This document shows, piece after piece, positions 2,462 to 39,189 of a stretch of DNA of 45,812 bases. The stretch is taken from assembly GCA_963764715.1 (NCBI GenBank), contig CAVXTP010000020.1:1-45812 (forward strand), written 5' to 3'. The notes below the pieces were generated by a model. It had not been told where the DNA came from and did not search any database. It was given only the letters and a program-made list of their open reading frames with translations. Position 1 is the first letter of the stretch, and each line of letters begins with the position of its first letter. The stretch is from an uncultured Acidobacteriota bacterium. GTDB taxonomy: Bacteria; Acidobacteriota; Thermoanaerobaculia; UBA5066; Gp7-AA6. The translations under genes were made by a program, and so were the position numbers.

Positions 2462-2554
2462 CGGCCGCGCATCCAGAGAAGCGCGGCGAGGAAGAGCAGC
2501 CCGTAGAGAAGCACCAGGATCACCGCGAGGCCGGGTCCCCGCCGCCGGCGGCCC

Positions 2555-2562
<8 letters not shown>
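2458..2562 (-). CDS. Unannotated 34-aa single-TM microprotein
   Basis: Hand translation [34 protein letters not shown]; start overlaps the YyaL stop and stop overlaps the HDAC start (ATGA). Confidence 0.55.
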
Positions 2563-4597
<2,035 letters not shown>

Positions 4598-4629
4598 GCC
4601 CAGAGCTTAACCCGCGGGTGCCGCCGCGT

Positions 4630-5214: not shown

Positions 5215-5345
5215 CTCGCGTAGTCTCCCACCGGTTCCTAACGCACGCTGTCCCCGAAAGTTCGCGGGCGGGCTTCGGCGACGCGGCCCCTTGTGGTAGT
5301 TTGCCCCGTGGGAGCGCCCCGCAAGGGGTTGTTGCGGCGAGCTTT

Positions 5346-5792
5346 ATGCCTCATTTCATCACCGAGACGTGCATCGGGTGCGGGGTGTGCGAGATCAAGT
5401 GCCCCACGCACACGATCACGGGCGACAAGAACGAGAAGTACGTGATCCACCACGACCGGTGCATCGACTGCTCGGTCTGCGCCCGGTACTGCCCCGTCTC
5501 CTGCATCCAGGACCAGAAGGGGGAGCTCGTCGAGAAGGTCCGGCCGAAGGACATCCCCAAGGCGATCGTGGACCGGGACCTCTGCACGGGCTGCGAGTTC
5601 TGCATCGACATCTGCCCGTTCGACTGCATCTACCTGATCGACGACCCGCTCCACGAGACCTTCCACAAGATCGCCGAGGTCGACGCCGGGCCCTGCGTCT
5701 CCTGCCGGCTCTGCGAAACCGTCTGCGAGAAGGACGCCATCTTCGTCCCCAACCCGATCACGCAGGCGAAGCGGTACCTCCCGGTCCTGTGA
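5346..5792 (+). CDS. Polyferredoxin with four [4Fe-4S] motifs
   Basis: CIGCGVCEIKCP, CIDCSVCARYCP, CTGCEFCIDICP, CVSCRLCETVC; ATG at 5346. Confidence 0.92.
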   Translation: MPHFITETCIGCGVCEIKCPTHTITGDKNEKYVIHHDRCIDCSVCARYCPVSCIQDQKGELVEKVRPKDIPKAIVDRDLCTGCEFCIDICPFDCIYLIDDPLHETFHKIAEVDAGPCVSCRLCETVCEKDAIFVPNPITQAKRYLPVL

Positions 5793-6728
5793 CCGAGACG
5801 CCGCGGGACGCCGCGCCCCCCGACGACGACGAAGACGCGGCGGGGGAGCCCCGCGGCGCGGCGCGCCTGATCGCACGCTTCTTCCTCCTGCCGCTGCTCG
5901 TGGTCGGCGCGGCGGTCGGGATCTTTCTCGTCTTCAACCTCATGACCTTCGAGCGGCGCAGCCCCCGCGACTACCTCCAGGAGGTCCGGGGCGGGACGGC
6001 GAACCGCCGCTGGCAGGCGGCCTTCGAGCTGTCCCGCTCGCTCGGGAACCTGCCTCCCGAGGAGCGCGCCGCGCTGACCGCGGAGACGCTGCGGATCTTC
6101 GAGGGTCTCTCGGGCAGGCGGCCGGACGACGTGCCCGTGCGCCGGTACCTCGTGCTCGTTCTCGGCCGGCTCGGCGAGCGCTCGGCCGTGCCCGCGCTCC
6201 AGGCGGCGGCGACGGACCCGGACCCGGACACGCGGCTCTACGCGGTCTGGGCGCTCGGCCGGATCGGGGACCCCGGCGCGTCGACACGGTGCTCGCGTCG
6301 TCCCAATCCGAGGACGCCGGCGCGCGGAAGATGGCGGCCTACGTGCTCGGGCAGCTCGGGACCCGCGCGCCATCCCGCGGTTGCAGGTCCTCGCCGAGGA
6401 CAAGGTCGCCGACGTGCGCTGGAACGCGGCGATCGCGCTCGCGGAGCTCGGCGACCGCTCCGGCCTCCCGGTGCTGCGCTCGATGATCGACCGGGACGCG
6501 CTCGCGCGCCAGGCCACGATCTCGAGCGAGCAGGCGGAGGCGGCGATGGTCAACGCGCTGAAGGCGCTCGCCCTGCTGAGGGACCCCGAGACGCTGCCGC
6601 AGATCGAGGCGCTCGCGAAGAGCGACCCGAACCTGCGCGTGCGCGACGCGGCCCGCCGCGCGGCCGAGGCGACGCGCGGCCCGGGAGCGAAACGTCTTGA
6701 GGGTTCCGACACCCTTTTGGTAGGCTGA
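5789..6728 (+). CDS. Membrane-anchored HEAT-repeat protein; frameshifted near 6280 and 6370
   Basis: GTG overlaps the ferredoxin stop; TM segment FFLLPLLVVGAAVGIFLVF; HEAT units VRRYLVLVLGRLG, TRLYAVWALGRIG, ARKMAAYVLGQLG, VRWNAAIALAELG. Confidence 0.8.
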
Positions 6729-6742
6729 GGCCCCGAGAATCG

Positions 6743-7285
6743 ATGTCTACGGCCCCGAACAGCGTCCCCACGCCACCGCCCGACGTCACCCTCGACGGGG
6801 TCACCCGGCGCTCCACCCTGAAGTGGATGACCCTCGCCTGGACGGGTTTCGCGGCCGCGACGGCCGCGGGCCTGACGGCCACGGTCCGCTTCCTCTTTCC
6901 CAACGTCCTCTTCGAGCCGCCCACGCGGTTCAAGGCGGGCGACCCCTCGACCTACGCCCTGGGCGTGGACGAGCGGTGGAAGGAGAAGTACGGGGTCTGG
7001 ATCGTCCGGGACACCAACTCGATCTACGCCCTGGTGGCCGTCTGCGTGCACCTCGGCTGCACGCCCAACTGGCTCGCGGCGCAGAACAAGTTCAAGTGCC
7101 CGTGCCACGGCTCGGGCTACTACGTCTCCGGCATCAACTTCGAGGGCCCGGCCCCGCGGCCGCTGGAGCGGGCGGAGATCGGGGTCTCGGCCGAGGACGG
7201 CCAGATCATCGTCGACAAGGCGACGCGCTACCTCTACGAGCGCGGCCAGTGGAGCGACCCCAAGGCATTCGTCAAGATGGCTTAG
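6743..7285 (+). CDS. qcrA: Rieske [2Fe-2S] subunit of a cytochrome bc/b6f-type complex
   Basis: CVHLGC and CPCHGS boxes, GPAPRPL; twin-arginine-like TRRSTL followed by a TM helix. Confidence 0.93.
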
Positions 7286-7325
7286 GCCGCGTCTCGAAAC
7301 CACCAGACAGGCAGCGGAGGTTCGA

Positions 7326-8114
7326 TTGGGTTCTCGTTGGCGTGACATCCAGCAAGCGATCGTCTCGAGCCAGCTCTGGAAATCCATCTTCCGCGTCGGG
7401 ATCCCGGACACCAATCGCAAGCGCGTGCTGGCGATGCTCGGCAACGTCGTCCTGCACCTGCACCCGGTCAAGACCCGCAAGTCCGGCGTCAAGATGCGCT
7501 ACACGTGGTGCGCGGGCGGCGTGACCTTCTTCCTCTTCCTCGTCCTGACGTTCACCGGCCTCCTGCTGATGTTCTACTACCGGCCGACCGTCGAGTACGC
7601 CTTCGTCGACATCCTCGACCTGCGCGAGCAGGTCCCGTTCGGCATCATGCGCGAGGTCCACCGCTGGGGCGCGCACGCGATGGTCATCTCGGTCTGGATC
7701 CACATGTTCCGCGTGTTCATGACCGGCTCGTACAAGCCGCCCCGCGAGTTCAACTGGGTCATCGGCGTGATCCTGCTCGTGCTGACGCTGCTGCTCTCGT
7801 TCACCGGCTACCTGCTGCCGTGGGACCAGCTCGCCATCTGGGCCATCACGGTCGGCTCCAACATGGCCTCGGCGACGCCGCTGCTCGGCATCCAGGGCCC
7901 GGGCACGTCGCTGCTCAAGATCGGCGACATCCAGCTCGTCACCTCGACCAACGACGCGCGGTTCGGCCTGCTCGGCGGCCGCTTCGTCGGCGCCGGCGCG
8001 CTCCTGCGGTTCTACGTCCTCCACTGCGTCGGGATTCCGCTGATCGCCGCGTTCCTCATGGCCGTCCACTTCTGGCGCGTCCGCAAGGACGGCGGGATCT
8101 CCGGTCCTGTCTAG
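7326..8114 (+). CDS. qcrB: Cytochrome b6-type (N-terminal half of a split cytochrome b)
   Basis: TWCAGG (Cys at the heme ci position of b6), HRWGAH...[10 protein letters not shown]-x14-H in helix D; GGAGG upstream of the TTG start. Confidence 0.92.
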
Positions 8115-15487: not shown

Positions 15488-15513
15488 AGTTTCGCGGGCA
15501 GGCAACATCGGTT

Positions 15514-15666
15514 CGCGGCGCGAGTAGTCTCCCGACCGAAGGGAGGGAGGAGGTTCGCGCCGCGGGAGCGAGAGCGCAGTCGAGGGGTCAGGCTCGCGGT
15601 CGAGCCCGCATCCGGGCGAGCCGCGAGCCGGTGCGCCGCAGGCGCAGACCCCTCGCAAGCTCTCGC
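15514..15666. repeat. Multi-branched palindromic element (repeat or structured RNA)
   Basis: Perfect stems 15514-23/15555-64, 15568-75/15659-66, 15581-89/15647-55, 15591-99/15621-29, plus small hairpins. Confidence 0.55.
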
Positions 15667-15673
15667 GACGTGC

Positions 15674-15706
15674 AAAACGAAGGGGGGAATCGGCCGATTC
15701 CCCCCT
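15674..15706 (-). terminator. Intrinsic terminator (minus strand)
   Basis: Perfect 26-nt palindrome AGGGGGGAATCGGCCGATTCCCCCCT (15681-15706) followed by TCGTTTT on the minus strand. Confidence 0.7.
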
Positions 15707-15747
15707 CTCCCGTCATGCCGGAACTCCCATGCCGGCACTCTTCTTGG
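15674..15747 (-). ncRNA. Candidate ~75-nt sigma54-dependent small RNA
   Basis: Lies between a -24/-12 motif and the terminator; internal hairpin TGCCGG-catgggagtt-CCGGCA; no credible ORF. Confidence 0.5.
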
Positions 15748-15757
15748 CGATCGTGAT

Positions 15758-15773
15758 TACAAGACCCGTACCA
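15758..15773 (-). promoter_or_regulatory. Sigma54 -24/-12 promoter (variant)
   Basis: TGGTACG-GGTC-TTGTA versus consensus TGGCACG-N4-TTGCW; IHF-like CTTCAAGGACTTG at 15803-15815 and palindrome CGACAAAATTTGTCG at 15871-15885 upstream. Confidence 0.55.
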
Positions 15774-15927
15774 GTAGATCGTGTGAAGCGCAGCGCTTGA
15801 TTCTTCAAGGACTTGCGCGAGACGGCGAACGACCGGCCCGCCAAACCGCGGCGCGTCGAGCGCCGACGGCCGACAAAATTTGTCGACGCGCGGTTAGAAT
15901 CCCGGCGCCCGTGGAGGTGGAGATCGC

Positions 15928-16143
15928 ATGAAGCTCGCGCGCTGGGTCGGTCTGTCGCTCGCCGTCGTCGTGGTCGCGGCCTCCGCCTGCGGCAAGAAGT
16001 CGTCGCACGGCGCCGGCCACGCCGCCGAGCCGGCCACGACGCCCGCTCCGCCGCCCACTCCCGACACGACGCCGATCGAGGCCCTGCGCACCCCGGCGGG
16101 CCTGGTCTTGAAGATCACGCCGGCGCCGACGATGGCGCCGTGA
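15928..16143 (+). CDS. Small Pro-rich lipoprotein
   Basis: Signal peptide with lipobox-like ASAC; GGAG RBS; TAGAAT -10 at 15895-15900. Confidence 0.65.
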
Positions 16144-16354
16144 AGAGCCCCGAACAGTCCGTCGTTTCCCCGAAGCCGGCCGCGCCCGAGCCTCCGAGAC
16201 GCGCGCCCCGGCGCGAACGCGCCGGCACGCTTCGGACGCCGAACCGTCCCGGACCTGCCCCAACTGCGGCGCCCCGCTCTTCGAGCAGAAGTGCAAGCTG
16301 CTCTGCCCGAACCGCGCCTGCGGCTACTACCTGAGCTGCTCGGACTTCTACTAG
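16140..16354 (+). CDS. Small CPxCG zinc-ribbon protein; start uncertain, probable frameshift
   Basis: Hand translation of the C-terminus: [34 protein letters not shown]; no in-frame start, and GTG 16140 overlaps the upstream stop in another frame. Confidence 0.6.
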
Positions 16355-16363
16355 GCTGCCGCC

Positions 16364-20747
<4,384 letters not shown>

Positions 20748-20847
20748 TTAAGTGTGTCTGGCTCAGCATTATGCCTGAAACCTGACGCTCGTCGGGACGG
20801 TTTCTGCGTCGGACGCCGCCGTGCTATCCTGCGCGCCTCTTTCGCGT

Positions 20848-20924
20848 GGGGCTGTAGCTCAGTTTGGGAGAGCGCCTGAATGGCATTCAGGAGGTCGACG
20901 GTTCGATCCCGTTCAGCTCCACCA
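20848..20924 (+). tRNA. tRNA-Ala (GGC)
   Basis: GGGGCTGTAGCTCAG...CCTGA-ATGGCAT-TCAGG...GGTTCGATCCC..CAGCTCCACCA; G3-U70 pair; encoded CCA. Confidence 0.97.
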
Positions 20925-21255
20925 ATTCTTGCCACCTCACGGTTCCCTAGCACCTGCGTGACTCGAAGCGACGGTTGGATCGAACCGTCGACCTCCGTGG
21001 GGGGCTCGGGGGGCGCCGTGCGCCCCCCGCCAGGGACGCCGACGGAACCGTCACCCGAGCGCAGCGAGGCGTGACGGTTCGATCCCGTTCAGCTCCACCA
21101 ATTCTTGCCACCTCACGGTTCCCTAGCACCTGCGTGACTCGAAGCGACGGTTGGATCGAGCCGTCGACCTCCGTGGGGGGTTCGGGGGGCGCCGTGCGCC
21201 CCCCGCCAGGGATGCCGACGGAACCGTCACCCGAGCGCAGCGAGGCGTGACGGTT
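20897..21255 (+). repeat. Tandem duplication of a 176-bp unit that begins with the tRNA-Ala 3' end
   Basis: GACGGTT recurs at 20897, 21073 and 21249; the two units differ at only a few positions. Confidence 0.92.
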
Positions 21256-21336
21256 TCAGCCGACCACCAGAGGCAAACCGCCGGCAGTAGGCAACGCCGG
21301 CCGCAGGCCGGCGGTCATCCCGTTCAGCTCCACCAA
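21190..21336 (+). repeat. ~146-bp direct repeat (left copy), ending in the tRNA-Ala 3' end
   Basis: CGCCGTGCGCCCC...AACCGTCACCCGAGCGCAGCGAGGCGTGACGGTTTCAGCCGACCACCAGAGGC...GGTCATCCCGTTCAGCTCCACCAA; near-identical to 22359-22504. Confidence 0.9.
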
Positions 21337-21540
21337 TCACCTCACTAAGACTTCAACCCGGGAACAAACGTGAGCCGACGTCTACCTGAATCGAACGCCT
21401 GCCGAGCGTGAGCGAGGCAGAGACGGTTTCAGCCGGCCACTGGAGGCAAACCCGCGCTTGGAGGGGCGCGACGTGGAAGATTCCGTCCACGACTTCGTTT
21501 GATGTTGCGGACCCGACCCTGGCGGGCCCAGGGCGTCTCG

Positions 21541-22308
21541 TTACCTCGTTTCCCGAACGACCCTGTCGTACAAAGGCTGCGTGGGGCGTGCGTCGTGGCG
21601 GTACAGTTTCGAGAACTGTGCAAGCTCGTCGGCTGAGATCGGAATGGGCTGTTTGAGGATGAACCAGGTCACGTTTTCGGTGCAGGGCGGAGTTGTGAGC
21701 GACCCTTCGAAGGTGTAGTAACCGCGGTCGCCGGGCAACAGATCGACGGCGTTGACCTTCACAGAATCGAAAAGGGCCTCCTTTTCTTTCTCTTTCGGGA
21801 TGTCCTTCCAAAGCTCGCGGACGAGCGGGTTCTCCTTGCCGAGCTCCAGAAGGATGGCGACGACTGCGAGGTGGCCGGCTTCATTCGCGTGCACCAGGTG
21901 AATGACCATGTCGTAAGTCTTGCCGTGGATCTTCTCCTCGCTCGGCCGATGAAAGTGGAACTGTTTCAACTGATACTGCGCGTCGCCCACACGGATGGAG
22001 CTCCCCGCCTCGTAGGTGACCATGATTGTGTGGCCGTTGTCGATGATCCGCAGTGGCGACGGCTTGTAGTCGAACTGGATGGCGGGCAGGTCGGCCTTTT
22101 CCGCCTCCTGGATATTGATCGGCGATTGGTGGTGGCCTTGTTTGCAGGGTGTGAACTCCGGCTTTAGGTCGCCCCAGTGCTGCGGACCAAGATCCTGTCC
22201 ATAATCCCATTCGTGCTTTTCGGCCGGTTTCGCCTCATGGGCTTGCGCGCGGGCGAAGGTCGCGGCCAGAGCAACGAAGAGCACGATTCGTGACACCAGT
22301 CGTGGCAT
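21541..22308 (-). CDS. cah: Alpha-class carbonic anhydrase, secreted
   Basis: Signal peptide; QSPINI, NGHTI, QFHFHRPSEE, HLVH, GSLTTPPCTENVTW, ARPTQPL; visibly more AT-rich than neighbouring genes. Confidence 0.95.
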   Translation of the reverse strand: MPRLVSRIVLFVALAATFARAQAHEAKPAEKHEWDYGQDLGPQHWGDLKPEFTPCKQGHHQSPINIQEAEKADLPAIQFDYKPSPLRIIDNGHTIMVTYEAGSSIRVGDAQYQLKQFHFHRPSEEKIHGKTYDMVIHLVHANEAGHLAVVAILLELGKENPLVRELWKDIPKEKEKEALFDSVKVNAVDLLPGDRGYYTFEGSLTTPPCTENVTWFILKQPIPISADELAQFSKLYRHDARPTQPLYDRVVRETR

Positions 22309-22358
22309 GGCCGTCCCCCAGTGGCTCTTAGCTTACCAATCCCATCGCATCGTTGGGA

Positions 22359-22504
22359 CGCCGTGCGCCCCCGCCGGGGACGCCGACGGAACCGTCACCC
22401 GAGCGCAGCGAGGCGTGACGGTTTCAGCCGACCACCAGAGGCAGACCCCCGGCAGTAGGCAACGCCGGCCGCAGGCCGGCGGTCATCCCGTTCAGCTCCA
22501 CCAA
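22359..22504 (+). repeat. ~146-bp direct repeat (right copy), ending in the tRNA-Ala 3' end
   Basis: Matches 21190-21336; ATCCCGTTCAGCTCCACCAA at 22485-22504; further partial copies at about 22505-22560 and 22591-22644. Confidence 0.9.
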
Positions 22505-23530
22505 GCCGACCACCGAAAGGCAGACCCCCGGCAGTAGGCAACGCCAGCCAGAGGCCGGCGGTAACTCGAAGGAAGCTCGAAGCCACCTTTGGCGCCGTGC
22601 GCCCCCCGCCAGGGACGCCCGACGGAAGCGTCACCCGAGCGCAGAGGTCCGTGTTCCCGTCCCCAAGTCGAACGACGCGGAGCAGGTGGTTCGACCGGCC
22701 GACGGCCGACCGCCCGTGCCCGCCAGCGGCCGCCCCGCCGGGCTGGCACAGGCCGCGCGGCGCGCGCGGTGGGATCGTCTCGGCCGCCAGGCTTCCTCGG
22801 CGCGGCCCGGAGCGCCTCGAGACGCACTGGATTCGGCCGGTGGGCGGCGGCGCGGACTTCCGGGTCATTTCAGCCGGTCCACAGGTCGACAGCGCCTGCC
22901 TCTCGAGGCTGCCGTTGGAGGCGCCTGGGTCTCGGACATACGGTGCGCTGACCCGATCCGCGCGGAGCCTGGAAGTGCCAGTACGCGATTCGGAGGGTTC
23001 GCGCGACCGAGCGCGGCAACACGGTCTCGGCGGCTCGCGCCTTCCACGATTTCGCCGGAGGCGGAGAGACGGCGGCGGGGGACTGCGCCGGCAGAGCCGC
23101 CGCCCCGGAGTCGGGAACCCCAAAGCCGCGACAGTGGCTGCCGCGGCGCTGCATGTGATTCGCCCCGACACCATCGACGATCCCGCTTCCGGCTCTCCGG
23201 TGAGATTTTCGTGGCTTCAGCCCGGGGCGGATGACCGCGTCGTCCGCCGCCGAGATCCTGTCGGATGTCACCCCGTCTGTCGATGGAGACCGTCTCTCAC
23301 CAGCGCCGCAGCAATATCGCGCCGTCAGTCCGCGCCCGCTATGCCACCCTTATACCGACCGGCCGATGAAGGGAATCCTTCCGTGCTTCAGCCCATCGAA
23401 ATCCTTCGGGCAGGGAGGCCGCGGCAATCGAAAAGCCCCCACGCGGCGCTGACGCGCAGGGCTGCACCTCACCCGCGAACAGGAAAATCGAACCGCGACC
23501 CTCCCGCGGAGCTCTGCCCGGAATTCGGCG

Positions 23531-23926
23531 CTACTCCGTCGTCTTGCCGGCGAAGTGCTCCCTGGCCGCCAGGGCATCGGCCTTGGTGGCGTGCACCGTG
23601 CCGTCCGCATGCTCGGGGGGCCCGTAGAGCGTGTAGAGCTTGAGCGGTCTTTCACCGGTGTTCTTGACGTTGTGCCGCGCGCCGGCGGGGACGAGGATGG
23701 CGGAGTCGCTCTCGATCTGCGTCTCCCGGCCGTCGATCCAGACCTCTCCCTTGCCCTCCTCGATCCGGAAGAACTGATCGCGGTCCGGGTGGACCTCCTC
23801 GCCGATGTCCTGGCCCGGCGCGAGCGCCATCAGAACGAGCTGCAGGTTCTTGCCCGTATACAGCACCCGGCGGAAATCCGAATTGTGCCCGGTGATTTCT
23901 TCGATGTCGTCGACGAACCCCTTCAT
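23531..23926 (-). CDS. Cupin domain protein
   Basis: NSDFRRVLYTG, IGEEVH..DQFFRIEEG, VPAGARHNV, LKLYTLYGPPEH; AAGGAG RBS. Confidence 0.9.
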   Translation of the reverse strand: MKGFVDDIEEITGHNSDFRRVLYTGKNLQLVLMALAPGQDIGEEVHPDRDQFFRIEEGKGEVWIDGRETQIESDSAILVPAGARHNVKNTGERPLKLYTLYGPPEHADGTVHATKADALAAREHFAGKTTE

Positions 23927-24086
23927 GGCAACTCCTTTCGACCGTCGAGATCAACCGTCAGCCTCACGATAAGCGGGCCGCGCCCGCAGCGCTTGATCCA
24001 AGTGGATCAAAAGCGCGGGTTCCGTTTCGGGTCGGCGGCCTCGGCCGCGGTTCGGCGGATTGACATATATTCAGCAAGATGGCTGA

Positions 24087-24431
24087 ATGTCTCCGATGGC
24101 TTCCCGCCGCCGGCCGACCGCTTTCGGTCTCTCCGGACGCGCATCGAGCGGCCACCCCGACGCGTACGAAGCGGTCTTCGACGCGCTCGCGCACCCGGCG
24201 AGGCGGCGGATCCTGATGACGGTGCACTTCGAGGGCGGATCGATGACCGCCGGGCAGATCGCCGCCGTCTTCACGCACACCTGGCAGACCACGACGCGGC
24301 ACCTTCAGGTCCTGGAAGAGGCCGGCCTTCTCGTGCACGAGAAGCGCGGACGTCTGCGGATCTATCGCATCGAACCCAAACGCCTCGAGCTAGTGCGGGA
24401 TTGGCTGGCCTGGTTCTCCCGGAACCCCTGA
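24087..24431 (+). CDS. ArsR/SmtB family transcriptional regulator
   Basis: VFDALAHPARRRIL, MTAGQIA, TRHLQVLEEAGLL, GRLRIYRI. Confidence 0.88.
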   Translation: MSPMASRRRPTAFGLSGRASSGHPDAYEAVFDALAHPARRRILMTVHFEGGSMTAGQIAAVFTHTWQTTTRHLQVLEEAGLLVHEKRGRLRIYRIEPKRLELVRDWLAWFSRNP

Positions 24432-24453
24432 CGAAGAACGAAGGAGGAATCGC

Positions 24454-24939
24454 ATGACGGGAAAAGCGAAAAAGCGGCAGACGATGGCGGGTCCGGCCTC
24501 GAAGTCCCGCCCGAGGATGAAACGCCCGGCGAGGAAGCGCGCAAGCGCCGATGTCCCGCAGTTCTTCCGTCTCAACGTCGAGGTCGGCTCGCTCGACGCC
24601 GCCGCGGCGTTCTACGAGCGGCTCCTCGCCCTGCCGGGGCGGAGGCAGGCCGGATCCCGCTGCTACTTCCGGTGCGGCCCGGTCACCGTCTCGGTTCTCG
24701 ACGTGTCGTCGTCGGGCCCGCCGCATCCGGCGGCCAAGGCGCTTTATTTCACGGTCCGGGACCTCGAGGCGGCGTTCGAGCGGGCGAAGGCCCTCGGCTG
24801 TTTGTCGCGGGAAAGCGTTCACGACGCTCCGGGCGGCGGGATCGTCGTGCGTCCGTGGGGGGAGCGGTCGTTCTATTGCGAGGACCCGTGGAAGAATCCG
24901 CTGTGCTTCGTCGAAGAGGGGACGATCTATGCCGGATAG
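24454..24939 (+). CDS. VOC/glyoxalase family protein
   Basis: LDAAAAFYERLL, LYFTVRDLEA, RPWGERSFYCEDPWKN; AGGAGG RBS. Confidence 0.88.
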   Translation: MTGKAKKRQTMAGPASKSRPRMKRPARKRASADVPQFFRLNVEVGSLDAAAAFYERLLALPGRRQAGSRCYFRCGPVTVSVLDVSSSGPPHPAAKALYFTVRDLEAAFERAKALGCLSRESVHDAPGGGIVVRPWGERSFYCEDPWKNPLCFVEEGTIYAG

Positions 24940-25023
24940 TCGGACATCGACTGTCGACGCTCATGGGAGGAACCACCTCGACCGTCACCTGCGGCAGTTC
25001 GGCGGCTGACGCCGCCGCTGCGC

Positions 25024-25215
25024 TCAGCCGGCGCTGTCTGGGTCCGATGAGTGGGGCCGGGGTTCGGCCGGGGATCCTCCGCTTCCGGCCGCCTCCGACG
25101 ACGGCCAGAGGGCGTGGATCGCGCACTCGAAGCTGTCGAAAAGGTGGCTCTTTCCCCCCACCACGATCTCGAAAATCACGGCTTGGGCGTTCTGACAAAC
25201 CTCACAAACCGGCAT
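25024..25215 (-). CDS. Small Cys-containing protein (N-terminal half of a metallothionein-like family)
   Basis: MPVCEVCQN..FEIVVGGKSHLFDSFECAIHAL; GGAGG RBS; C-terminus low complexity. Confidence 0.55.
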   Translation of the reverse strand: MPVCEVCQNAQAVIFEIVVGGKSHLFDSFECAIHALWPSSEAAGSGGSPAEPRPHSSDPDSAG

Positions 25216-25324
25216 CGGGACCTCCCGCCGCGGGCGCGTAGAACCGACCGCAGCAAGCCATCGAACCCCCAGCTAGACTCGAGTCAGGCTCCTTGCAAGA
25301 CTCGCGCCGCCCCTCCGGCGGCTT

Positions 25325-26300
25325 CTATTCGTGAGCCCGCGGAGGGTTCCCTTTGAGTCGGTAGACGACGCCTGTCTTCGTCGCCCCGAGGGCGATCCAG
25401 TCCTTGACGGCGTCCTGGAGAGTCAGAAAAGAAGTCTCGGCGCGCTTCATCGCCCTGGCGTTGAGCTCCTCGCGGCGTTTGAACTTGATCTGATACGCGA
25501 ACTCCCCGACGAGAGGACGATGATCGCCGCGCGACCGCCAGAGCGCGACGTTGGCCATGGCCGTGACGCCCTTGCCGAAATCCAGGACCGCGACGTCCTG
25601 CAGCACTTCCTCGACGATGGTACCGCAGACGAGCTCGACTTTCTCGCCCCGGCGGAGCGCTTGAGCGAGCCCAGCAGCGGCAGCAGGTTCACGAGGGTGT
25701 CCATCGAGTTGGCGGTCTCCCTCGTGGATGGCGCTCAGCCCGAATTCCACGTTGTGCGAGTAGAGCAGGCGCATGCCGCCGAGGCCGTCCTTCAGCGGGA
25801 GGGCCTCCGCCTTGAACTTGATCCGGTAGTCACCCAGGATCTGTGGCCGCACGTCGGTCTGCGCAGCCTTCTGGATGTCGGGGTGGCGGAACTTGAAGAC
25901 GATCTCGGGATCTCCGATCGGGAAACCCTCCGAGTACGCGGACACGCCTCCGCAGGATGAAGGCGTTGTTGTAGAGGCGAAAGTCGTCCGTGTCGAGGAA
26001 CAGAACTTCCCGGATCTGGAGCGGCTGATTCGCGAAGTCGCAGGGCTCGAACCCGACGCCCGCCTGACGCGCCGGACGCCGGAGCAGCTTGCCGAAGTTT
26101 TCGAGACTCTTGCGGGAGGTGAAGCCGTTCGGCCGCAGGATGATCTTGCTCTCGAGGTACTGGACCTCGTGGAGGGGGAGGCCGTCGGCGTACTTGCCCG
26201 GCTTTATGGCGGGCACGCGTCCGCCCGGGCCCTTCGGCGCGACGTCCGGCTTCGCCGGCGCAACCCTGCGGGCGGATTTCGACTCGGGCTTCTTGGACAT
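25325..26300 (-). CDS. Conserved hypothetical protein, possibly CYTH-like fold; frameshifted near 25945 and 25660
   Basis: Joined frames: YLESKIILRP, REVLFLDTDDFRLYNNAFILRRR, EIVFKFRHPD, IKFKAE, VGEFAYQIKF, ATKTGVVY; GAGGAG RBS before ATG 26300. Confidence 0.7.
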
Positions 26301-26404
26301 GTACTCCTCGACGGCGTGCAAGCCGCTGCGTGTCGGTGAATGGAAGCAGCCATGATAGACCCTGTTCGGAAACGCCGCCCGGGAGCTGCCGGTCGCCGAG
26401 GCCC

Positions 26405-27310
26405 TCAGAGAAACTTCAGCAGCGCTTCTGTCGTCCCCTTGGGATCTTCCTCGAGCACCCAGTGCCCGGTATTCTGCAGAACCACGACGGTCACGTCCGG
26501 CGCGACGAGCTTCGTCTGGTCGCCGAGCACCCGGCCGAGCGACTTCTCGCCGCCGATCGTGAGGACGGGCATCGCCAGCCGGGTTTTCGCGAGCTCGGCG
26601 AAATCCTTGGCGGCCCGAGGAAAGGACACGAAGTAGGACCAGCCGGCCTTCATGCGTCCCGGGCGCGAGTAGGCCGCCGTGTACGCGCGGCGGTCCGCCT
26701 CGGGGAGCGAGCGGTTCCTGTCGGCGGCGAATTCGTTCCAGTAGTAGTCGAAGTAGATTCGCTCGCGGCCCTTCACCGAGGGCCTCGGCGTCGGACCGCA
26801 GAACCGGAAGTGCCAGAGCCCCGGATTGTCGTAGACGGCCTCCCAGCCCTCGACTCCCGGCAGGAAGGCGTCCATGAGGACGAGCTTCTCGACCTCCGCG
26901 GGGAACTGCGCGGCATAAGCGTAGGCCACCATCAGGCCGATGTCGTGGCCCACCACGCGAGCCTTCTCGACGCCGAGCGAGCGCACGAGCGCATGGACGC
27001 GCGCCGCCGCGGTCTTCATGTCGAGGCCGTCGGCCGGAACCGACGAATCGCCGATGCCGGGAAGGTCCGGCGCGATGACCGTGAACTTCTCGGCGAGCTT
27101 CGGAATGATCGGCCGCCACATGCGGGACGTCTCGGCGTAGCCGTGAAGCAGGACGAGCGCCGGACCATGCCCGGCCGAGAGGTAGTGGAAGTCGACGCCG
27201 GCGATCGAGGCGGTGCGGGAGGCGATGTCGGCGCCTTCGGCCGGCCTCGCCGCCGCGAGGGCGAACAGGAGGCCGAGCGCTCGAATGCGCGATCCGGGTG
27301 GGATCTTCAA
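26405..27310 (-). CDS. Alpha/beta hydrolase (epoxide hydrolase/dehalogenase-like) with signal peptide
   Basis: LLHGYAET, APDLPGIGDS, VGHDIG (Asp nucleophile), GHWVLEE. Confidence 0.88.
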   Translation of the reverse strand: MKIPPGSRIRALGLLFALAAARPAEGADIASRTASIAGVDFHYLSAGHGPALVLLHGYAETSRMWRPIIPKLAEKFTVIAPDLPGIGDSSVPADGLDMKTAAARVHALVRSLGVEKARVVGHDIGLMVAYAYAAQFPAEVEKLVLMDAFLPGVEGWEAVYDNPGLWHFRFCGPTPRPSVKGRERIYFDYYWNEFAADRNRSLPEADRRAYTAAYSRPGRMKAGWSYFVSFPRAAKDFAELAKTRLAMPVLTIGGEKSLGRVLGDQTKLVAPDVTVVVLQNTGHWVLEEDPKGTTEALLKFL

Positions 27311-27341
27311 TGTTTTCTCGCTTTCTCGTGAGTACTCGTCT

Positions 27342-28172
27342 TCATCGGAGGAACTCGACCAGCTCGCGATTGACTTCTTCCGCGTGAGTCCAGGTGAAGC
27401 CGTGGGGCGCGTCCTTCAGCACCACGAGCCGGCTGCCGCGGACGGCCTCGTGCGTGCGTCTTCCCGAGACTTCCAGAGGGACGATGCGGTCGGAGTCGCC
27501 GTGGACGACGAGGGTCGGAACGTCGATCTTCGCGAGATCCTCCCGGAAATCGGTCAGCCACGCCGACACGCAGTCGAGAGTGCCGACGGCGGAAGCTCCG
27601 GCGGCGATCGTCCAGCTCAACCGGACGAGATCGTCCGAGACGCGCTTGCCGCCGAGAGCGTCCACGTTGTAGAAATTCTGGAGGAACCCGGCGAGGAACG
27701 CCGGACGGTCGGCGGCGAGGCCCTTTTGAATCCCGTCGAAGATCGCGCGGTCGACGCCCGCGGGGTTGTCGGGTGTCTTCAGGAGAAACGGCGGGATCGC
27801 GCCGAGGAACGCCGCCTTCCGCGCGCGCTCGGAGCCATATCGTCCGAAGTATCGCGCGACCTCGCCGCCGCCCATCGAGAAGCCCACGAGCGCGATGTCG
27901 GAGAGGTCGAGCTTCGTGACGAGCGCGTGCAGGTCGGCGGCCAGGGTGTCGTAGTCGTAGCCGAAGGTCGGCTTGCTCGATTCGCCGAAGCCGCGGCGGT
28001 CGTACGTGACGACGCGGTAACCGGCCTCGAGCAGCGCCGTCGTCTGTTTCTCCCACGAGCGCCCCGAGAGGGGCCACCCGTGGATGAGGACGACCGGCTT
28101 TCCGCGGCCGTGGTCCTCGTAATAGAGGTCGATGTTCCCGGAGTTTTCCTTTCCGACGGTGACGAAGGGCAT
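27342..28172 (-). CDS. Non-heme haloperoxidase/perhydrolase (alpha/beta hydrolase)
   Basis: LYYEDHG, IHGWPLSG, YDRRGFG, GFSMGGGE, HGDSDRIVP, APHG. Confidence 0.92.
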   Translation of the reverse strand: MPFVTVGKENSGNIDLYYEDHGRGKPVVLIHGWPLSGRSWEKQTTALLEAGYRVVTYDRRGFGESSKPTFGYDYDTLAADLHALVTKLDLSDIALVGFSMGGGEVARYFGRYGSERARKAAFLGAIPPFLLKTPDNPAGVDRAIFDGIQKGLAADRPAFLAGFLQNFYNVDALGGKRVSDDLVRLSWTIAAGASAVGTLDCVSAWLTDFREDLAKIDVPTLVVHGDSDRIVPLEVSGRRTHEAVRGSRLVVLKDAPHGFTWTHAEEVNRELVEFLR

Positions 28173-28264
28173 CGCGTCCTCCCGTGCTTTTTTCTATCAC
28201 GCGGACGTGAGATCCCAGCGCACCCCGGCTGCGCATAGGATTACCGCCCAGAGGAGACATCGCC

Positions 28265-30067
28265 ATGCCGCAGTCCCGCCGGAAGTTCCTCGCCCGCACC
28301 GCCGCCGGGGTCGTGGGAGCCGCCGCCGCCCGGCGCGTCGCCGGATCGCCCGATCCGACCGTCACGCCGGTCGAGGGCACGCCGCCCGCCTTCGGGACCG
28401 CACCGCCCGTGGGGCCCGACATTTCGACGGCGACCGTCGCCGAAGCGCAGAAGTTCGTGCGCATCGAGTTCACGCCCGCGCAGCAGGCCCAGATCGCGGG
28501 CAGCTGGCCGCGGGCGATGGCCTCGACGATGGAGCGGCGGACGGGGCCGCGCAAGCTGGCCCTCGGGACCGACGTCGTCCCGGCGACGCTCTGGAATCCG
28601 ATGATCCCGGGGGTCGCGCCGGGGCCGACGCGCGACCGGTTCGTCGCGACCGCCGCCGATCCCGGCCCGCTCCCGAAGAAGGACGACGACATCGCCTTCG
28701 CGCCGATCGCCGCGCAGGGGCAGTGGATCAAGTCGCGGGCGCTGACCTCCGAGCGGTTGACACGCATCTACCTCGATCGGGTCGCGCGCTTCGACGGAAA
28801 GCTCCACTGCATCATCACGCTGACGACGGAGACGGCGCTCGCACAGGCCAGGCGCGCCGACGCCGAGATCGCGGCCGGCAGGTACCGGGGGCCGCTGCAC
28901 GGCATTCCGTTCGGCGTGAAGGACCTCATGGACACGAAGGGGATCCTCACGACCTACGGCGCCGAGCCCTACCGCAACCGGGTGCCCGAGGCGGACTCGG
29001 CCGTGGTCGACCGGCTGCAGAAGGCGGGCGCGGTCCTCATGGCGAAGCTCTCGCTCGGCGCCCTGGCCTTGAACGACATCTGGTTCGGCGGCCAGACGAT
29101 GAACCCGTGGCTCCTCGAGGAGGGCTCCGGGGGCTCGAGCGCGGGCCCCGGCGCCGCCACGGCCGCGGCGCTCGTCGGGTTCTCGGTCGGCAGCGAAACC
29201 GGCGGTTCCATCATCGACCCGGCCGTCCGCTGCGGAGTGACGGGCCTTCGGCCGACCTTCGGCCGGGTGCCGCGGACCGGCGCGATGGCGCTCTGCTGGT
29301 CCCTCGACAAGCTCGGTCCCATGACCCGCGGCGTCGAGGACACGATGCTCGTCCTCCAGGCGATCACGGGCCCCGACCCCGGCGACCTCTCGAGCGTGCC
29401 GAGTCACCTCGATTTCGACGCGAAGGCGCCGGTGAAAGGCCTCAAGCTCGGCTACGTCAAGGCCTGGATGAACGAGAGCCCGGCGACGGAGGTCGACCGC
29501 GCGGCGCTCGAAACGTGCCGGAAGCTCGGCATGGTTCCGGTCGAGGTTCAGCTTCCGGACTGGCCGTACGGGTCGCTCAACACCATCCTCTTCGCCGAGG
29601 CGGCCGCGTCCTTCGAGGAGCTGACGCTTTCGAACGGCCTCGACCAGCTGAAGGCGCAGGTTCCCGACGCGTGGCCCAACCTCTTCCGGCAGGCCCGTTT
29701 CCTGTCCGCCGTCGACTTCGTCCAGGCGGACCGCATGCGCCGCAAGGTCGCGCAGGAGATGGAGAGGATCTTTCGGCAGGTCGACGTCTTCCTCTCGCCG
29801 CCCCTGCGGGACGAGATCCTGACGATCACGAACTTCACCGGCCACCCCGCGATCGTTCTGCGGACGGGCTTCCTGCAGGTCACCCAGGCTCGCAGCGACT
29901 GGGCCCCGGACCCGAAGAACCCCATGCCGACTTTCGCGAAACCGCGGCGCGTTCCGCACGGGGTCTCGTTCATCGGGCGGATGTTCGACGAAGGAACGAT
30001 CGCGACCGCGGCGATCGCCCTCGAAAAGGCCTCGGGAGTCGCGGGGGAGCGTCCGCCGGGGTTCTGA
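28265..30067 (+). CDS. Amidase signature family protein with Tat signal
   Basis: SRRKFL; GPLHGIPFGVKDL; GSGGSSAG; GSETGGSI; GLRPTFGRV. Confidence 0.93.
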   Translation: MPQSRRKFLARTAAGVVGAAAARRVAGSPDPTVTPVEGTPPAFGTAPPVGPDISTATVAEAQKFVRIEFTPAQQAQIAGSWPRAMASTMERRTGPRKLALGTDVVPATLWNPMIPGVAPGPTRDRFVATAADPGPLPKKDDDIAFAPIAAQGQWIKSRALTSERLTRIYLDRVARFDGKLHCIITLTTETALAQARRADAEIAAGRYRGPLHGIPFGVKDLMDTKGILTTYGAEPYRNRVPEADSAVVDRLQKAGAVLMAKLSLGALALNDIWFGGQTMNPWLLEEGSGGSSAGPGAATAAALVGFSVGSETGGSIIDPAVRCGVTGLRPTFGRVPRTGAMALCWSLDKLGPMTRGVEDTMLVLQAITGPDPGDLSSVPSHLDFDAKAPVKGLKLGYVKAWMNESPATEVDRAALETCRKLGMVPVEVQLPDWPYGSLNTILFAEAAASFEELTLSNGLDQLKAQVPDAWPNLFRQARFLSAVDFVQADRMRRKVAQEMERIFRQVDVFLSPPLRDEILTITNFTGHPAIVLRTGFLQVTQARSDWAPDPKNPMPTFAKPRRVPHGVSFIGRMFDEGTIATAAIALEKASGVAGERPPGF

Positions 30068-30236
30068 CCCCCAGGCCCGCGCGTTAGGCGGTCAGCTCGG
30101 CGTTTGCGACCCGGACGCGCGCGGTCCTGCACGCCGTGCGGGCCGGATACCTGGCCTGGGCTTCCCTTCGCGCCCTCGGGATAGAGTAGGTGGCACACTC
30201 GACCACCCTCGGTCCGAGTCGTCAGAGGAGGAATCA

Positions 30237-30850
30237 ATGAAACGCGCGTCCTGGATTCGTCCTGGCTGTCATCGCAATGTGTCTTGCCGTCGCGGCGTCC
30301 GCCTCGGCCCAGGCGGTCAACAAGAAGGCCCCGGAGCCCGGCAACGTCCCGGTCGAGACCTTCACCGGATTCGCCGTCAGCGTGACGAGCGGCCAGTCCG
30401 GCGTCGTCGAGATCGTGATCAACCGCTGGTCGACCGACGGCGAGCGCGCGCTGCTCGAGAACGTGCTCAAGGCCTCGGGCTCGCAGGCGATGGTCAACAT
30501 CATGCAGGACCTGCCGCAGGTCGGCTACATCAAGGGCTCGGAGACGATGGGCGACGCGCTGTTCTACGCCCGCTCGACCGACCTGCCGGACGGCACGCGC
30601 CAGGTCGTCATCGCGACGAATCGGCCGATCTCGGCCGCGGCGCGATGCTCTCGCCCGGCGCCGCGAACAAGTACGACGCGACCGTCATCGAGATGCGGTT
30701 CCCGAAGGGCTCGAAGAAGGGCGAGGGCAAGATCGTCGTCGCGGGCAAGGCCTCGATCGACCCGAAGACCGGGAAGCTCAAGCTCACCAACTACTCGGGC
30801 GAGCCGGTGCGGCTCGAGAACATCACGGTCGAAGACCAAGTCGTGTCCGG
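30237..30850 (+). CDS. Hypothetical secreted protein; frameshifted, end uncertain
   Basis: GAGGAG RBS; signal peptide; IVINRWSTDGER, RQVVIATNRPI, IEMRF..GEGKI..LTNYSGEPVRL across frames. Confidence 0.6.
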
Positions 30851-30911
30851 ACGAAGTTTCGGGCTCCAGGCAGCCCGCGCGTCGAGGGCCACCCGGGCCC
30901 GGCGCGCGGGC

Positions 30912-31619
30912 TTACTTCTTCTGGAGCCGTCCTTCGAGTCGATCCGGCGGCGCTCCCGTCCGAGATCTCCATCGAGACCAGGCGCGCGATCAGGATCGGC
31001 CGGGAAGAGCTGGCCGACGAGGGCTTCGCACTCGGCGAGGCTGCGCGCGAGCCGTCGCCACCGGCGTGATGTCGCCGTAGCCGACGGTCGTCAGCGTCAC
31101 GAAGCTGAAGTAGACGAGAGCGATCCGCGATCCATCCGGTGATCCGTGACCTCGGCAAAGCGAATCGCGTCGGGAACGCGCGACAGCACGAGCTCGTAGG
31201 CGAAGGCCCAGGTGAAGCCGAGCAGCAGGTACGCGGCGATCGCGCCCGGCGATCCGGTGCCGGTCGTGATCGGGCCGCGCACGGAACACCTGCGCCAGCG
31301 TCAGGACCGTCAGGATGAGCAGCGACAGCATCCCGAGCCAGAGGCTGAGCTGCGAGAGTCCGGCGACGGGCTGAACGAGGCCCGCGACGCGAGTCGCCAT
31401 GGCGAGGACCGCAACGAGCGCGGCGAGGACCGTCGCTCCGCGTCGGGCAAGGGCCGCGACGCCGCTGACGAGGACGAGCCCGAAGAAGACGTCGAAGACG
31501 AGCGGGCCGAGGATCCCCGCCGTCATCAGCGGCGGCGCCACGAAGAGCGTCGCCACCAGGCAGAGGAGCAGGGCCGTCAGACCCTTGTCGTCTCGCCAGA
31601 AGCTCGGGAGCGGCCGCAT
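30912..31619 (-). CDS. Potassium channel family protein; frameshifted, end approximate
   Basis: Several TM helices; YFSFVTLTTVGYGDITP selectivity filter; ILIARLVS. Confidence 0.85.
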
Positions 31620-31698
31620 CGGGCTGGCCGATTGTACACGGGCGCGGAACCGGATGCGTTCCGGTGCGTAAGAGATAGGAGAGGCGGGAGGCGAGCTG

Positions 31699-33493
31699 AT
31701 GCGGTTTCTGCGAATCGCCCTGTGCGCGGCCGCGCTGGCTCCCGTCGTGGCCGCCGGCGAGCCGCCGTCGCGGGCCGGCCGCCCGATCGCCTTCGTGCAC
31801 GCGAACGTCGTGCCGATGGACGCGGACCGGGTCCTCCGCGACCAGACGGTCGTCGTGTCCGGCGGCCGCATCGCCGCCGTCGGACCGACCGGAAAGACGC
31901 CGGTGCCGCCGGGAGCGCGGGTCATCGACGCCGCCGGGCGCGGTACCTTTCCCCGGGCCTCGCCGACATGCACGTTCACGTCTACGCGCCGCAGGAGCTG
32001 ACGCTGTACGTCGTCAACGGCGTCACGACGATCTTCAACCTGAACGGCCGACCGGCGTACCTCGACTGGCGACGGCGGATCGCCGCGGGCGAGCTTCTCG
32101 GGCCGACGATCTATTCCGCCGGGCCGACGTTCGACCATCCGCGGACGCCCGCGGAGGCGGTCGCGGAGGTCGACCGGCAGGCCGCCGCGGGCTGGGACGC
32201 CGTCAAGATCTACAACCAGGTCAGCGCGGCCGAGTACCCGGCGCTGACCGCCGAGGCGAAGGCGAAGGGCCTCGTCCTCGTCGGGCACGTGGCCCGCGAG
32301 CCGGGCTTCGCGGCGACGCTTTCGGCGGGGCAGTCGATCGCCCACGCCGAGGAGTACGTCTACACGTTCTTCAACGACGATCCGGATCCGAAGAACGAGG
32401 TCGTCCACCCGCTCGACACGGCGAAGATCCCGAAGGCCGTCGCCCTGACGCGCGAGGCGGGGATCTCGGTCATTCCGACGCTCGTCGCGTTCCACAACAT
32501 CGTGCGCCAGGCGACGGACGTGAAGGCCTACCTGCGCAATCCGGATCTCGCCTCCATGGCCGCCCTTCATGCGCGCGCAGCTCGAGCCGGCCGTCAACAC
32601 CTACGCCAACCGCTGGACGAGCGACAAGCTCTCCGGGCCTCGCCGTCAGCTACGAATTCCAGAGGCAGCTCGTCAAGGCGCCTCCACGACGGAGGCGTTC
32701 CGATCCTCGCCGGGACCGACGCGTCGTGGCTCGGCGTGCCGGGTTTCTGTCTGCTCGAGGAGATCGAGAACTTCCAGGACCTCGGCTTCACGCCCTACGC
32801 GGCCTTGAAGACGGCGACCGTGGATCCCGCGAAGCTCCTGAGGCGGGAAGGCGAGTTCGGAACGATCGCGGTCGGCATGCGCGCGGACCTGATCCTGACG
32901 CGGGAGAACCCGCTCGAGGACGTGCGCCGCCTCCGCCGGCCGGACGGCGTGATGGCGAACGGGCGTTGGATCGACGCCGCCGAGCGGCGGCGCCTTCTCG
33001 AGGGCCTTCCGGCCTCGTACCGCGAGACGCTCGGCGAGGCTCACGCGCGACGCGCGCGAGAATCCCCCGCGCGCTCGACGCGTACCTCGAGGCGAACGAT
33101 CCATGGGGGGAGATCGGCGGCGCGGTGCTCGCGTCGATCGCGTCGGACCGGGGAGCCGCAGGCCTCGTCGGCCTGCTCCGGGACATCCGCCGGACCGATC
33201 CGAAGTCGCCCCTGCTCGGCGAAGAGGCGATCAACCAGCTCGGCTACGGGCTCGCCCGCCAGAAGGAGACCGGCGCCGCGATCGAAGTCTTCAAGCTCAA
33301 TACCGAGCTCTACCCGTCGTCGGGCAACGCCTGGGACAGCCTCGCGGAAACCTGTCTCGGCGCAGGCAACGAGGAGCTGGCCCGGAAGTACTACGCACGC
33401 GCCCTGGAGGTCCAGCCGGACTATCCGAACGCGAAGGCCGCCCGCGAGCTCCTCGAGACGAAGCTGGCCGGTCCCGCCGCGGCCGCCCACTGA
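31699..33493 (+). CDS. Amidohydrolase family protein with C-terminal TPR; frameshifted
   Basis: Signal peptide; PGLADMHVH, NGVTT, GHV, IAHAEE, ILAGTDA, GTIAVGMRADLIL; TPR INQLGY..NAWDSLAE. Confidence 0.85.
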
Positions 33494-39089: not shown

Positions 39090-39189
39090 GGAAGCGCACG
39101 GGGTCCGGTGACCCTCGCGGACTTCAAATCCGTCGGCGTCGCGGCCTCGCGCCGGGACGGGTGGGTTCGACTCCCACACGCTTCCGCCA
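39090..39189 (+). tRNA. selC: tRNA-Sec (UCA)
   Basis: GGAAGCGC acceptor stem; GCGGA-CTTCAAA-TCCGT anticodon arm; long variable arm; GTGGG-TTCGACT-CCCAC; ends GCCA; CATAAT -10 upstream. Confidence 0.93.

Follow-up and report, generated by a model that had tools for sequence, protein, structure and literature searches.

The 178-bp repeats behind the tyrT gene of Escherichia coli have been known for decades; the older primary papers on them are those of Egan and Landy (1978), Rossi (1981), Bosl and Kersten (1991) and Rudd (1999). The current report describes an array of comparable layout behind a tRNA-Ala(GGC) gene of an uncultured soil bacterium of the Acidobacteriota (Thermoanaerobaculia; UBA5066; Gp7-AA6), whose genome (G000; GenBank assembly GCA_963764715.1) comprises 4.36 Mb in 26 contigs, with 70% GC and a completeness of 96.8%. 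The array is located on contig CAVXTP010000020.1 (C20), all 45,812 nucleotides (nt) of which were analysed and are referred to below as the window. The explanation that we cautiously favor is that of a tRNA-linked repeat array of the E. coli tyrT type that expanded by recombination between its repeats, was colonised by a dispersed element resembling the repetitive extragenic palindromic (REP) sequences, and captured one gene. According to a 2024 preprint, the RNA of the E. coli repeats (rtT) takes part in processing the tyrT transcript and probably also in the stringent response, by a mode of action that is unknown (10.1101/2024.07.17.603846). Two further systems with which the array might be compared are the cis-mobilizable elements (CIMEs), for which a definition and a three-step accretion model have been given in connection with the ICESt1 family of Streptococcus (PMC5704250), and the tycheposon islands of Prochlorococcus, with their tandem islands and pile-ups of partial tRNAs (10.1101/2020.12.28.424599).

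In E. coli K-12 (NC_000913: 1286700-1287330; L074 among our loci), three tandem units of 178 bp lie behind tyrV, the repeat extending into its last ~19 nt. The annotation gives the first unit as the small RNA RttR and places the tiny tpr open reading frame (ORF) within it. In each of these rttR units there is a T-arm copy in inverted orientation (22 nt, 86% complementary, the arms being 67 nt apart), a 10-nt part of which pairs perfectly with the next tail copy, as well as a CGAGC-N4-GCGAG motif, and each unit ends in the tRNA-Tyr tail. A literature search for the inverted T-arm copy of rttR gave only passing mention of rttR. The acidobacterial array resembles this arrangement in its period of 176 bp, which is likewise in register with the 3' end of the tRNA, in units that end in a tail with CCA, in an inverted T-arm copy at the same 67-nt spacing, and in the CGAGC-loop-GCGAG motif, which is present in both organisms. 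It differs in that the tail copy is 28 nt long and includes the whole T-arm, against ~19 nt in E. coli, in the order of the T-stem half and the capped hairpin, and in that the acidobacterial family serves three tRNA species in several genera and has captured genes.

A preliminary description of this DNA had noted that the 3' end of the tRNA-Ala gene recurs three times downstream of it, each time behind the same hairpin-containing module, and the counts bear out both statements. The 20-nt tail is found exactly at positions 20906, 21082, 21317 and 22485 (four matches, against 0.00 expected from 100 shuffles), and a 34-nt hairpin module is present in three exact copies, at 21046, 21222 and 22390 (0 expected from the same number of shuffles). 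The segments 20897-21072 and 21073-21248 form a 176-bp tandem repeat of 98% identity that starts at the first T-stem base of the tRNA, and because of this starting point the unit of the array is defined here as a body of 148 bp followed by 28 nt that repeat the tRNA from its T-stem to the CCA. Two 146/147-bp copies farther along (21190-21336 and 22359-22504, 96.6% identical) enclose an ORF for a carbonic anhydrase. What had been described as one module is in fact made up of three layers: the ~176-bp tRNA-linked unit, a ~60-nt dispersed REP-like repeat, which we call Y, and the tail itself. A whole-genome BLAST search splits the 146-bp module along these lines, in that its left part, with the G/C hairpin and the capped hairpin, is found only here, on contig C19 and on contig C11, its middle ~60 nt are the dispersed Y, and its last 20 nt are the tRNA tail. 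The genome-wide dispersal that had been named beforehand as evidence against the proposal thus applies in part, to the ~60 nt of the middle layer. The partial modules reported earlier likewise divide into two remnants of the module, a truncated copy at 22591-22644 and a diverged one at ~21397-21428, and a third stretch, 22505-22560, which is a copy of the dispersed Y and is not specific to the locus. The features are collected in Table 1.

Table 1. Features of the array behind the tRNA-Ala(GGC) gene, in window coordinates
Feature	Position	Strand	Evidence
tRNA-Ala(GGC) gene, anchor of the array	20848..20924	+	ARAGORN; Rfam RF00005, 62 bits
Unit 1 (148-bp body plus 28-nt tail copy at 21073-21100)	20925..21100	+	Tandem repeat D1; covariance model R1, 136.7 bits
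Anti-T-arm, inverted copy of tRNA positions 43-62	20977..20996; second copy 21153-21172	+	Inverted repeats I2, I4
G/C hairpin	21007..21029 (unit 1); 21183-21205 (unit 2)	+	96.7% of cells paired in 34 units
Capped hairpin, its stem using the T-stem of the tail copy	21046..21079; 21222-21255; 22390-22423	+	3 exact copies against 0 expected
Unit 2, tail copy split in the T-loop by Y (21249-21255 and 21317-21336)	21101..21336	+	
Y, ~60-nt REP-like element in the T-loop of a tail copy	21256..21316; also 22424-22484, 22505-22562; fragment 21429-21456	+	
Worn unit with a second type of leader	21337..21456	+	Aligns with units behind tRNA-Ala in G048, G063 and G070; repeat family D5
Captured segment, 846 bp, alpha-carbonic anhydrase	21496..22341; CDS 21541-22308	-	PF00194; homology to L027; absent from the G023 array
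3' half of a unit (half G/C hairpin, capped hairpin, Y-split tail)	22355..22504	+	96.6% identical to 21190-21336; bridged by a contig covering 22243-22479
Last unit, truncated (G/C hairpin; capped hairpin, left part only)	22591..22644	+	Junction with the flank exactly as in G023

Within a unit, a variable leader is followed by the inverted T-arm copy (anti-T-arm), the G/C hairpin, the capped hairpin and the tail copy; the arms of the inverted repeat formed by the anti-T-arm (I2) are 100% complementary and separated by 67 nt. An alignment of 34 units from this and related genomes makes a secondary structure of the unit plausible. The tip of the capped hairpin would be a CGAGC-GNA-GCGAG mini stem-loop (CCGAGCGNAGCGAGG), invariant in all 34 units, which can be read as C-C, two G-A pairs, G-C, C-G and a GNA loop, and the stem below it is paired in 81.8% of the alignment cells, with two pairs changed on both sides. 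A predicted long-range stem of 13 bp between the anti-T-arm and the tail copy is paired in 97.3% of the cells, and one of its positions is changed on both sides in 14 units. The worn unit has a leader, a degenerate anti-T-arm (~21387-21399) and, at ~21397-21422, a variant of the capped hairpin, followed by the beginning of a tail copy together with a fragment of Y. An additional, acceptor-like stem between a G-run and the tail copy was considered and rejected, because the G-run varies without compensation and is the same in units at tRNA-Ala and tRNA-Pro genes; the notion that the unit is a tRNA pseudogene was also rejected, since neither ARAGORN nor Rfam calls one. At the gathering threshold, Rfam recognized only the tRNA and a tRNA-Sec in the whole window, and a cmscan search of 20000-23500 with E up to 1 returned nothing but the tRNA. 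A promoter and terminator scan of 20600-22800 gave 0 promoter-like sites and 2 terminator-like sites, against 2.0 expected.

The unit is not peculiar to this genome. The tRNA, the unit and the tail copy (query positions 1 to ~254) are found together in at least 13 of 24 genomes of the same genus, at 72-97% identity, and in 16 genomes of other families there is little beyond the tRNA among the matches listed. A pattern consisting of the capped hairpin followed by a T-arm occurs in 28 of 175 genomes of the order, with a single hit for the reversed control; all genomes that have it belong to the family of the window, where it is present in 27 of 104, against 0 of 70 in the two others. (The tallies for the genus and the order include G030, which has a tRNA match only and on which nothing depends.) The pattern matches are located 110-182 nt behind the genes for tRNA-Ala(GGC), tRNA-Ala(CGC) and tRNA-Pro(TGG) in several genera. 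The leader varies between units, the parts derived from the T-arm track the local tRNA, and the G/C hairpin and the tip are common to the units. In 30 of 31 pairs of tRNA and unit, the anti-T-arm matches positions 43-62 of the resident tRNA at 16 to 20 of the 20 positions (20/20 in 11 pairs, 19/20 in seven, 18/20 in six, 17/20 in five and 16/20 in one), and in the remaining pair at 13/20. Most genomes have one unit and the range is from one to six, the largest array being that of G059, with six units of a 157-bp period at tRNA-Pro(TGG). The tRNA-Pro(TGG) gene of the genome under study (C11:8782-14161; L070) is followed by units of the same family with their own T-arm, and there a 4.9-kb stretch between tail copies encodes a 1086-aa FG-GAP/TIG/SLH protein and Y resides in the last T-loop. 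The covariance model built from the 34 units (R1) recovers the units at this tRNA-Pro(TGG) gene along with those of the window. Because the family is mostly single-copy behind tRNA-Ala and tRNA-Pro genes across genera, in the layout of E. coli tyrT, the proposal that the units without cargo are freshly stacked mobile cassettes is not supported.

The middle layer, Y, has a distribution of its own, with 68 BLAST hits on many contigs of the genome. In the array it splits the tail copy in the T-loop, after the fifth-to-seventh base on the loop side, and it is also found in the T-loops of tail copies at tRNA-Ser(CGA), tRNA-Ser(GCT) and tRNA-Pro(TGG), which brings the number of such tRNAs to four. 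A motif search located 44 dispersed copies, 23 of which are enclosed by a GGGCGGGG/CCCCGCCC inverted repeat (stem). Because it is found both in T-loops at four tRNAs and in these inverted repeats, we regard Y as a small element of hairpin loops whose presence in the array is secondary. It is similar to REP sequences and to the paired arrangements of them known as REPINs (REP doublets forming hairpins) in being short, GC-rich and dispersed and in having a GTAG motif followed by a hairpin; it differs from them in that its copies are single and not inverted pairs, in its conserved 5' part of ~27 nt and in its location in hairpin loops. The genome contains five matches to the Y1-transposase family (PF01797), any of which might be a REP-associated tyrosine transposase (RAYT), the kind of enzyme that mobilises REP elements.

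The gene enclosed by the two 146/147-bp copies is, as had been noticed at first inspection, inverted with respect to the array and richer in AT than its surroundings (GC 0.589, against 0.699 for the window). Its 255-aa product matches Carb_anhydrase (Pfam PF00194) with an E value of 1.1e-46 and 160 bits, against a cut-off of 27, over profile positions 2-252 of 254. The closest homologue, in L027, is 89% identical in nucleotide sequence exactly over 21496-22341, that is, over the gene plus 33 bp upstream and ~45 bp downstream of it, and the L027 copy is not near a tRNA. Since this homology stops at 21496 and at 22341, the borders of the segment do not coincide with the tail copies: the first lies inside the Y fragment or spacer and the second just before the half G/C hairpin. 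Another homologue, in L032, is located by ordinary 47-nt copies of tRNA-Ala, at the far end of a stretch of ~34 kb that has no unit motifs; the same carbonic anhydrase cassette was not found elsewhere among the homologue contexts examined, these two included. The orthologous array in the closest relative, the separate assembly G023 (97% identical), reads tRNA, unit, tail, unit, Y-split tail and truncated third unit, followed by the same flank, and it does not have the 1168-bp stretch 21337-22504, which in the window comprises the worn unit, the carbonic anhydrase segment and the 3' half of a unit with its Y-split tail. In the preliminary description the segment had been viewed as a unit delivered by integration at tRNA ends. 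This part of the interpretation is not supported, since the same Y-disrupted T-loop is present in both flanking modules, which were therefore copied one from the other and do not stem from two integrations, and the ends of the segment fall inside repeat and hairpin sequences. A single crossover in the 146-bp module, or an unequal exchange, gives exactly the arrangement seen.

Carbonic anhydrase is one of several kinds of cargo at this position. When the tRNA-Ala(GGC) locus is compared among relatives, as had been recommended, the genes between the tail copies differ or are absent: G023 is without the carbonic anhydrase stretch, G006 and G021 have a gene for PadR and two further ORFs, G011 has genes for a cupin, a GH15 hydrolase and a split CLC channel, G053 has genes for a P-type ATPase and a CarboxypepD_reg protein, and G001 has two ORFs whose family is unclear; other cargo was also seen. 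Between G006 and G021 the PadR cassette is ~90% identical, and its far end differs. The 10 cargo ORFs of relatives that were scanned are ordinary metabolic or transport genes, with no recombinase domain in any of them.

Nor were recombinases found next to the array. The earlier observation that no integrase is present agrees with the absence of matches to the tyrosine recombinases (PF00589) on C20 and C19 and to the serine recombinases (PF00239) in the whole genome. All six PF00589 matches of the genome are on C22 and C17; they include two strong Xer-like ones, one beside tRNA-Pro(CGG) and one near tRNA-Leu(CAA), and there is none at tRNA-Ala. The search for a tyrosine recombinase that accompanies the units, which had also been recommended, was carried out by tblastn with the five recombinase ORFs of the genome and was confined to 72 fetched loci (535 kb; L071, the integrase island of the genome itself, and L074, from E. 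coli, were left out); its only match was in L024, a classical 9-kb island in another family, without a unit. An integrase candidate beside an orphan tail copy in L065 was rejected as a DUF2238 protein. Elsewhere in the genome, a tRNA-Pro(CGG) gene (C22:40744-55264; L071) carries a 14-kb island with an adjacent integrase (PF00589, E 6e-14), and at the paralogous tRNA-Pro(CGG) gene (C6:96-8788; L072) three islets of 2.6-3.3 kb lie between 47-nt copies of the tRNA, with no PF00589 match.

The sequence of events that we favor begins with a lineage-conserved unit behind tRNA-Ala(GGC/CGC) and tRNA-Pro(TGG) genes. Arrays of two to six units would gain and lose units through slippage or unequal homologous recombination between tails and bodies. 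The ~60-nt REP-like element, which prefers hairpin loops, landed in the T-loop of the second tail copy, as its position here and at the other three tRNAs shows. The 846-bp carbonic anhydrase segment lies between worn units, and single-crossover (Campbell-type) recombination within the 146-bp module would then have produced the direct repeat of that module on its two sides. No step in such a sequence would require a dedicated recombinase, and none was found. By analogy with the E. coli repeats, the tRNA and the units probably share a transcript that is cut at the tRNA-like ends of the units.

Several observations weigh against this explanation. The T-loop-type tyrosine integrases cross over at the T-stem/T-loop of tRNA genes, and the repeat starts exactly at the first T-stem base, as such an integrase would leave it. 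In both G006 and G021 the PadR cassette has its left junction exactly at the tRNA end or tail copy, a position that fits site-specific insertion better than random capture and that is the best single point in favor of such insertion. As for the E. coli parallel, the Rfam model for the RtT RNA (RF00391) has 0 matches in the whole genome, with matches in E. coli as a control, and with model R1 the E. coli units score no more than 8-9 bits (E about 5-8); because of these low scores the likeness, as far as sequence can tell, is one of layout and of a short motif and not a demonstrated homology. The covariation in the proposed structure is thin, with both-side changes at one pair of the long-range stem and two pairs of the capped hairpin. 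Finally, for transcription of the units, no RNA runs are listed as carrying the locus, against 20 DNA runs (wetland and soil metagenomes).

A possible, though in our opinion unlikely, alternative is that the units are non-autonomous elements, namely CIME-like minicircles with an attP site only plus one unit with cargo, that were stacked at the T-arm by an integrase acting in trans, in the manner of an integron. In its favor, direct repeats of the tRNA end that start at the T-stem bracket every unit, cargo without an integrase varies at the same tRNA in relatives, the PadR cassette joins the core exactly on its left side, and the same genome has both the integrase island at tRNA-Pro(CGG) and the three integrase-less islets at the paralogous locus. 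The accretion concept for CIMEs and the tandem Prochlorococcus islands cited above provide precedents: as in those systems, direct repeats of a tRNA 3' end enclose units and cargo that have no genes for integration or transfer, and the content at a given tRNA varies among relatives. However, in contrast to those systems, no related autonomous element or cognate integrase was found here in the genome or the fetched loci, and in particular no integrase lies beside the tRNA-Ala or tRNA-Pro(TGG) core. The smallest units are 176 bp long, conserved across genera and provided with an inverted T-arm copy, which places them outside the CIME description; the unit is a single copy with invariant internal motifs across genera; the carbonic anhydrase segment ends away from the att-like cores; and both cores that flank it are split by the same repeat in the T-loop, the presumed crossover region. 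A circle of 176 bp is also very small for integrase synapsis.

The resemblance to integrons that had been suggested for the array can be stated in similar terms. There is an anchored array of non-autonomous units that end in a structured, partly palindromic site and are either empty or carry one gene. The differences are that there is no intI-like gene beside the anchor (no PF00589 match on C20), that the only ORF runs opposite to the direction of the array, on the other strand from the tRNA and the tails, and that the repeated site is a tRNA tail with a hairpin and not an attC site. From the initial picture of an integron-like stacked array, the tails that bracket the units and the variable, integrase-less cargo can be retained; an integrase for the site was not found in the genome or the fetched loci, and the borders of the carbonic anhydrase segment are off the cores. 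A more far-reaching version would unite the E. coli and acidobacterial units into one cross-phylum class of folded T-arm mimics that serve as recombination sites for a host-encoded enzyme, that is, tRNA-anchored and integron-like arrays which collect and swap single genes without an integrase of their own, and this we consider improbable.

That the units are functionless, neutral scars of decayed islands at a hotspot of tRNA integration is a quite improbable alternative, even though tRNA-Ala(GGC) is such a hotspot in the order, with 45-52-nt copies of the tRNA 0.6-9 kb downstream of it in relatives and one island with an integrase-like gene, and several other tRNAs of the genome also have tail copies. 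Neutral DNA would not be expected to keep a 15-nt tip invariant in 34 of 34 units or the G/C hairpin at 97% pairing, the inverted T-arm copy has remained complementary across several genera and three tRNA species, and units at different tRNAs have a common body but the local T-arm.

Folded single-stranded recombination sites are known from CTX phage, in attP(+), and from the attC sites of integrons, and the anti-T-arm and the tail copy might likewise rebuild a T-arm-like duplex for a host recombinase such as Xer. We think this very improbable. The 13-bp long-range stem, with its high degree of pairing and its one doubly changed position, is what such a site would show, two Xer-like recombinases are encoded in the genome, and the arrays and the integrase-less cargo would fit. 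On the other hand, the anti-T-arm extends 7 nt farther as a match to the real tRNA and not to the tail copy, and in the seven cases in which the tRNA and the tail copy differ it is closer to the tRNA in four, tied in two and closer to the tail copy in one, a lean that appears too weak to build on. There is also no sign of recombinase action, and no circular or single-stranded form was seen among the low-depth short contigs.

The weakest alternative, that the duplications are artefacts of long-read metagenome assembly, might be raised because contig ends of this assembly overlap at 96-99.6% (C3/C20 and C20/C9) and because C19 is a diverged copy of window positions 15500-31954, but it can practically be dismissed, since the separate assembly G023 has the same order of tRNA, unit, unit and Y at 97% identity together with the paralogous locus, and since short-read metagenome contigs bridge three junctions (21418-21650, 22243-22479 and 22426-22624, with 2-6 letters differing). 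The arrangement of the array, which the preliminary description had left subject to this doubt, is not an assembly artefact. One further short metagenome contig spans 20897-21079 with zero differing letters. The metagenome contigs come from four runs and are of low depth and fragmentary, with no joints listed and none spanning the tandem units.

Some observations outside the array also deserve mention. The neighbors of the array are ordinary chromosomal genes, with a PAS/GAF sensor gene upstream and genes for a cupin, an ArsR-type regulator, a glyoxalase, hydrolases and an amidase downstream. Contig C19 (23.5 kb) corresponds over its whole length to the stretch of the window named above, at 86-95% identity. 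It has its own, identical tRNA-Ala(GGC) gene with a unit, the tRNA segment being inverted relative to the flanks, and it encodes a DoxX protein, a HAD hydrolase and a 484-aa ORF and has no carbonic anhydrase gene; G023 has both loci, so that the duplication looks real. In the window, 22645-23230 is a remnant of the 5' end of the gene for the 484-aa ORF of C19 (78% over 113 nt), and ~1 kb found between the array and the cupin gene in G023 is missing. Window positions 1-7771 overlap C3 (96.2% over 7.8 kb) and positions 40336-45812 overlap C9 (99.6% over 5.5 kb); several other contig pairs overlap likewise, and C6 and C22 share ~40 kb at ~90%. A dispersed repeat of ~150 nt at 15504-15670, with ~40 copies genome-wide and several stems that change on both sides between copies, shares a motif with the tRNA-linked units, in that its first hairpin is tipped by the same CGA(N)C-GAA-G(N)GAG mini stem-loop. 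At the gathering threshold Rfam gave no match for this repeat, and C19 ends in a copy of it. The tRNA-Sec gene of the window is located at 39090-39189 (ARAGORN; Rfam RF01852, 66 bits), and in the relatives L039 and L067 a tRNA-Sec gene is found within a few kb of a tRNA-Ala gene with a unit.

The occurrence of an E. coli-like layout over several genera and three tRNA species provides comparative data on such repeats beyond those from E. coli alone. The comparison distinguishes the parts that are invariant, the capped tip and the G/C hairpin, from the part that follows the resident tRNA, the inverted T-arm copy, and it shows that these arrays vary in their number of units and are able to acquire genes. 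Should the units be transcribed, each would yield an RNA of ~176 nt with 20 nt antisense to its own tRNA and a tRNA-like end, which would make it a candidate for a regulator or a decoy. If they are instead recombination sites, they would explain the existence of gene cassettes without integrases at tRNA genes.

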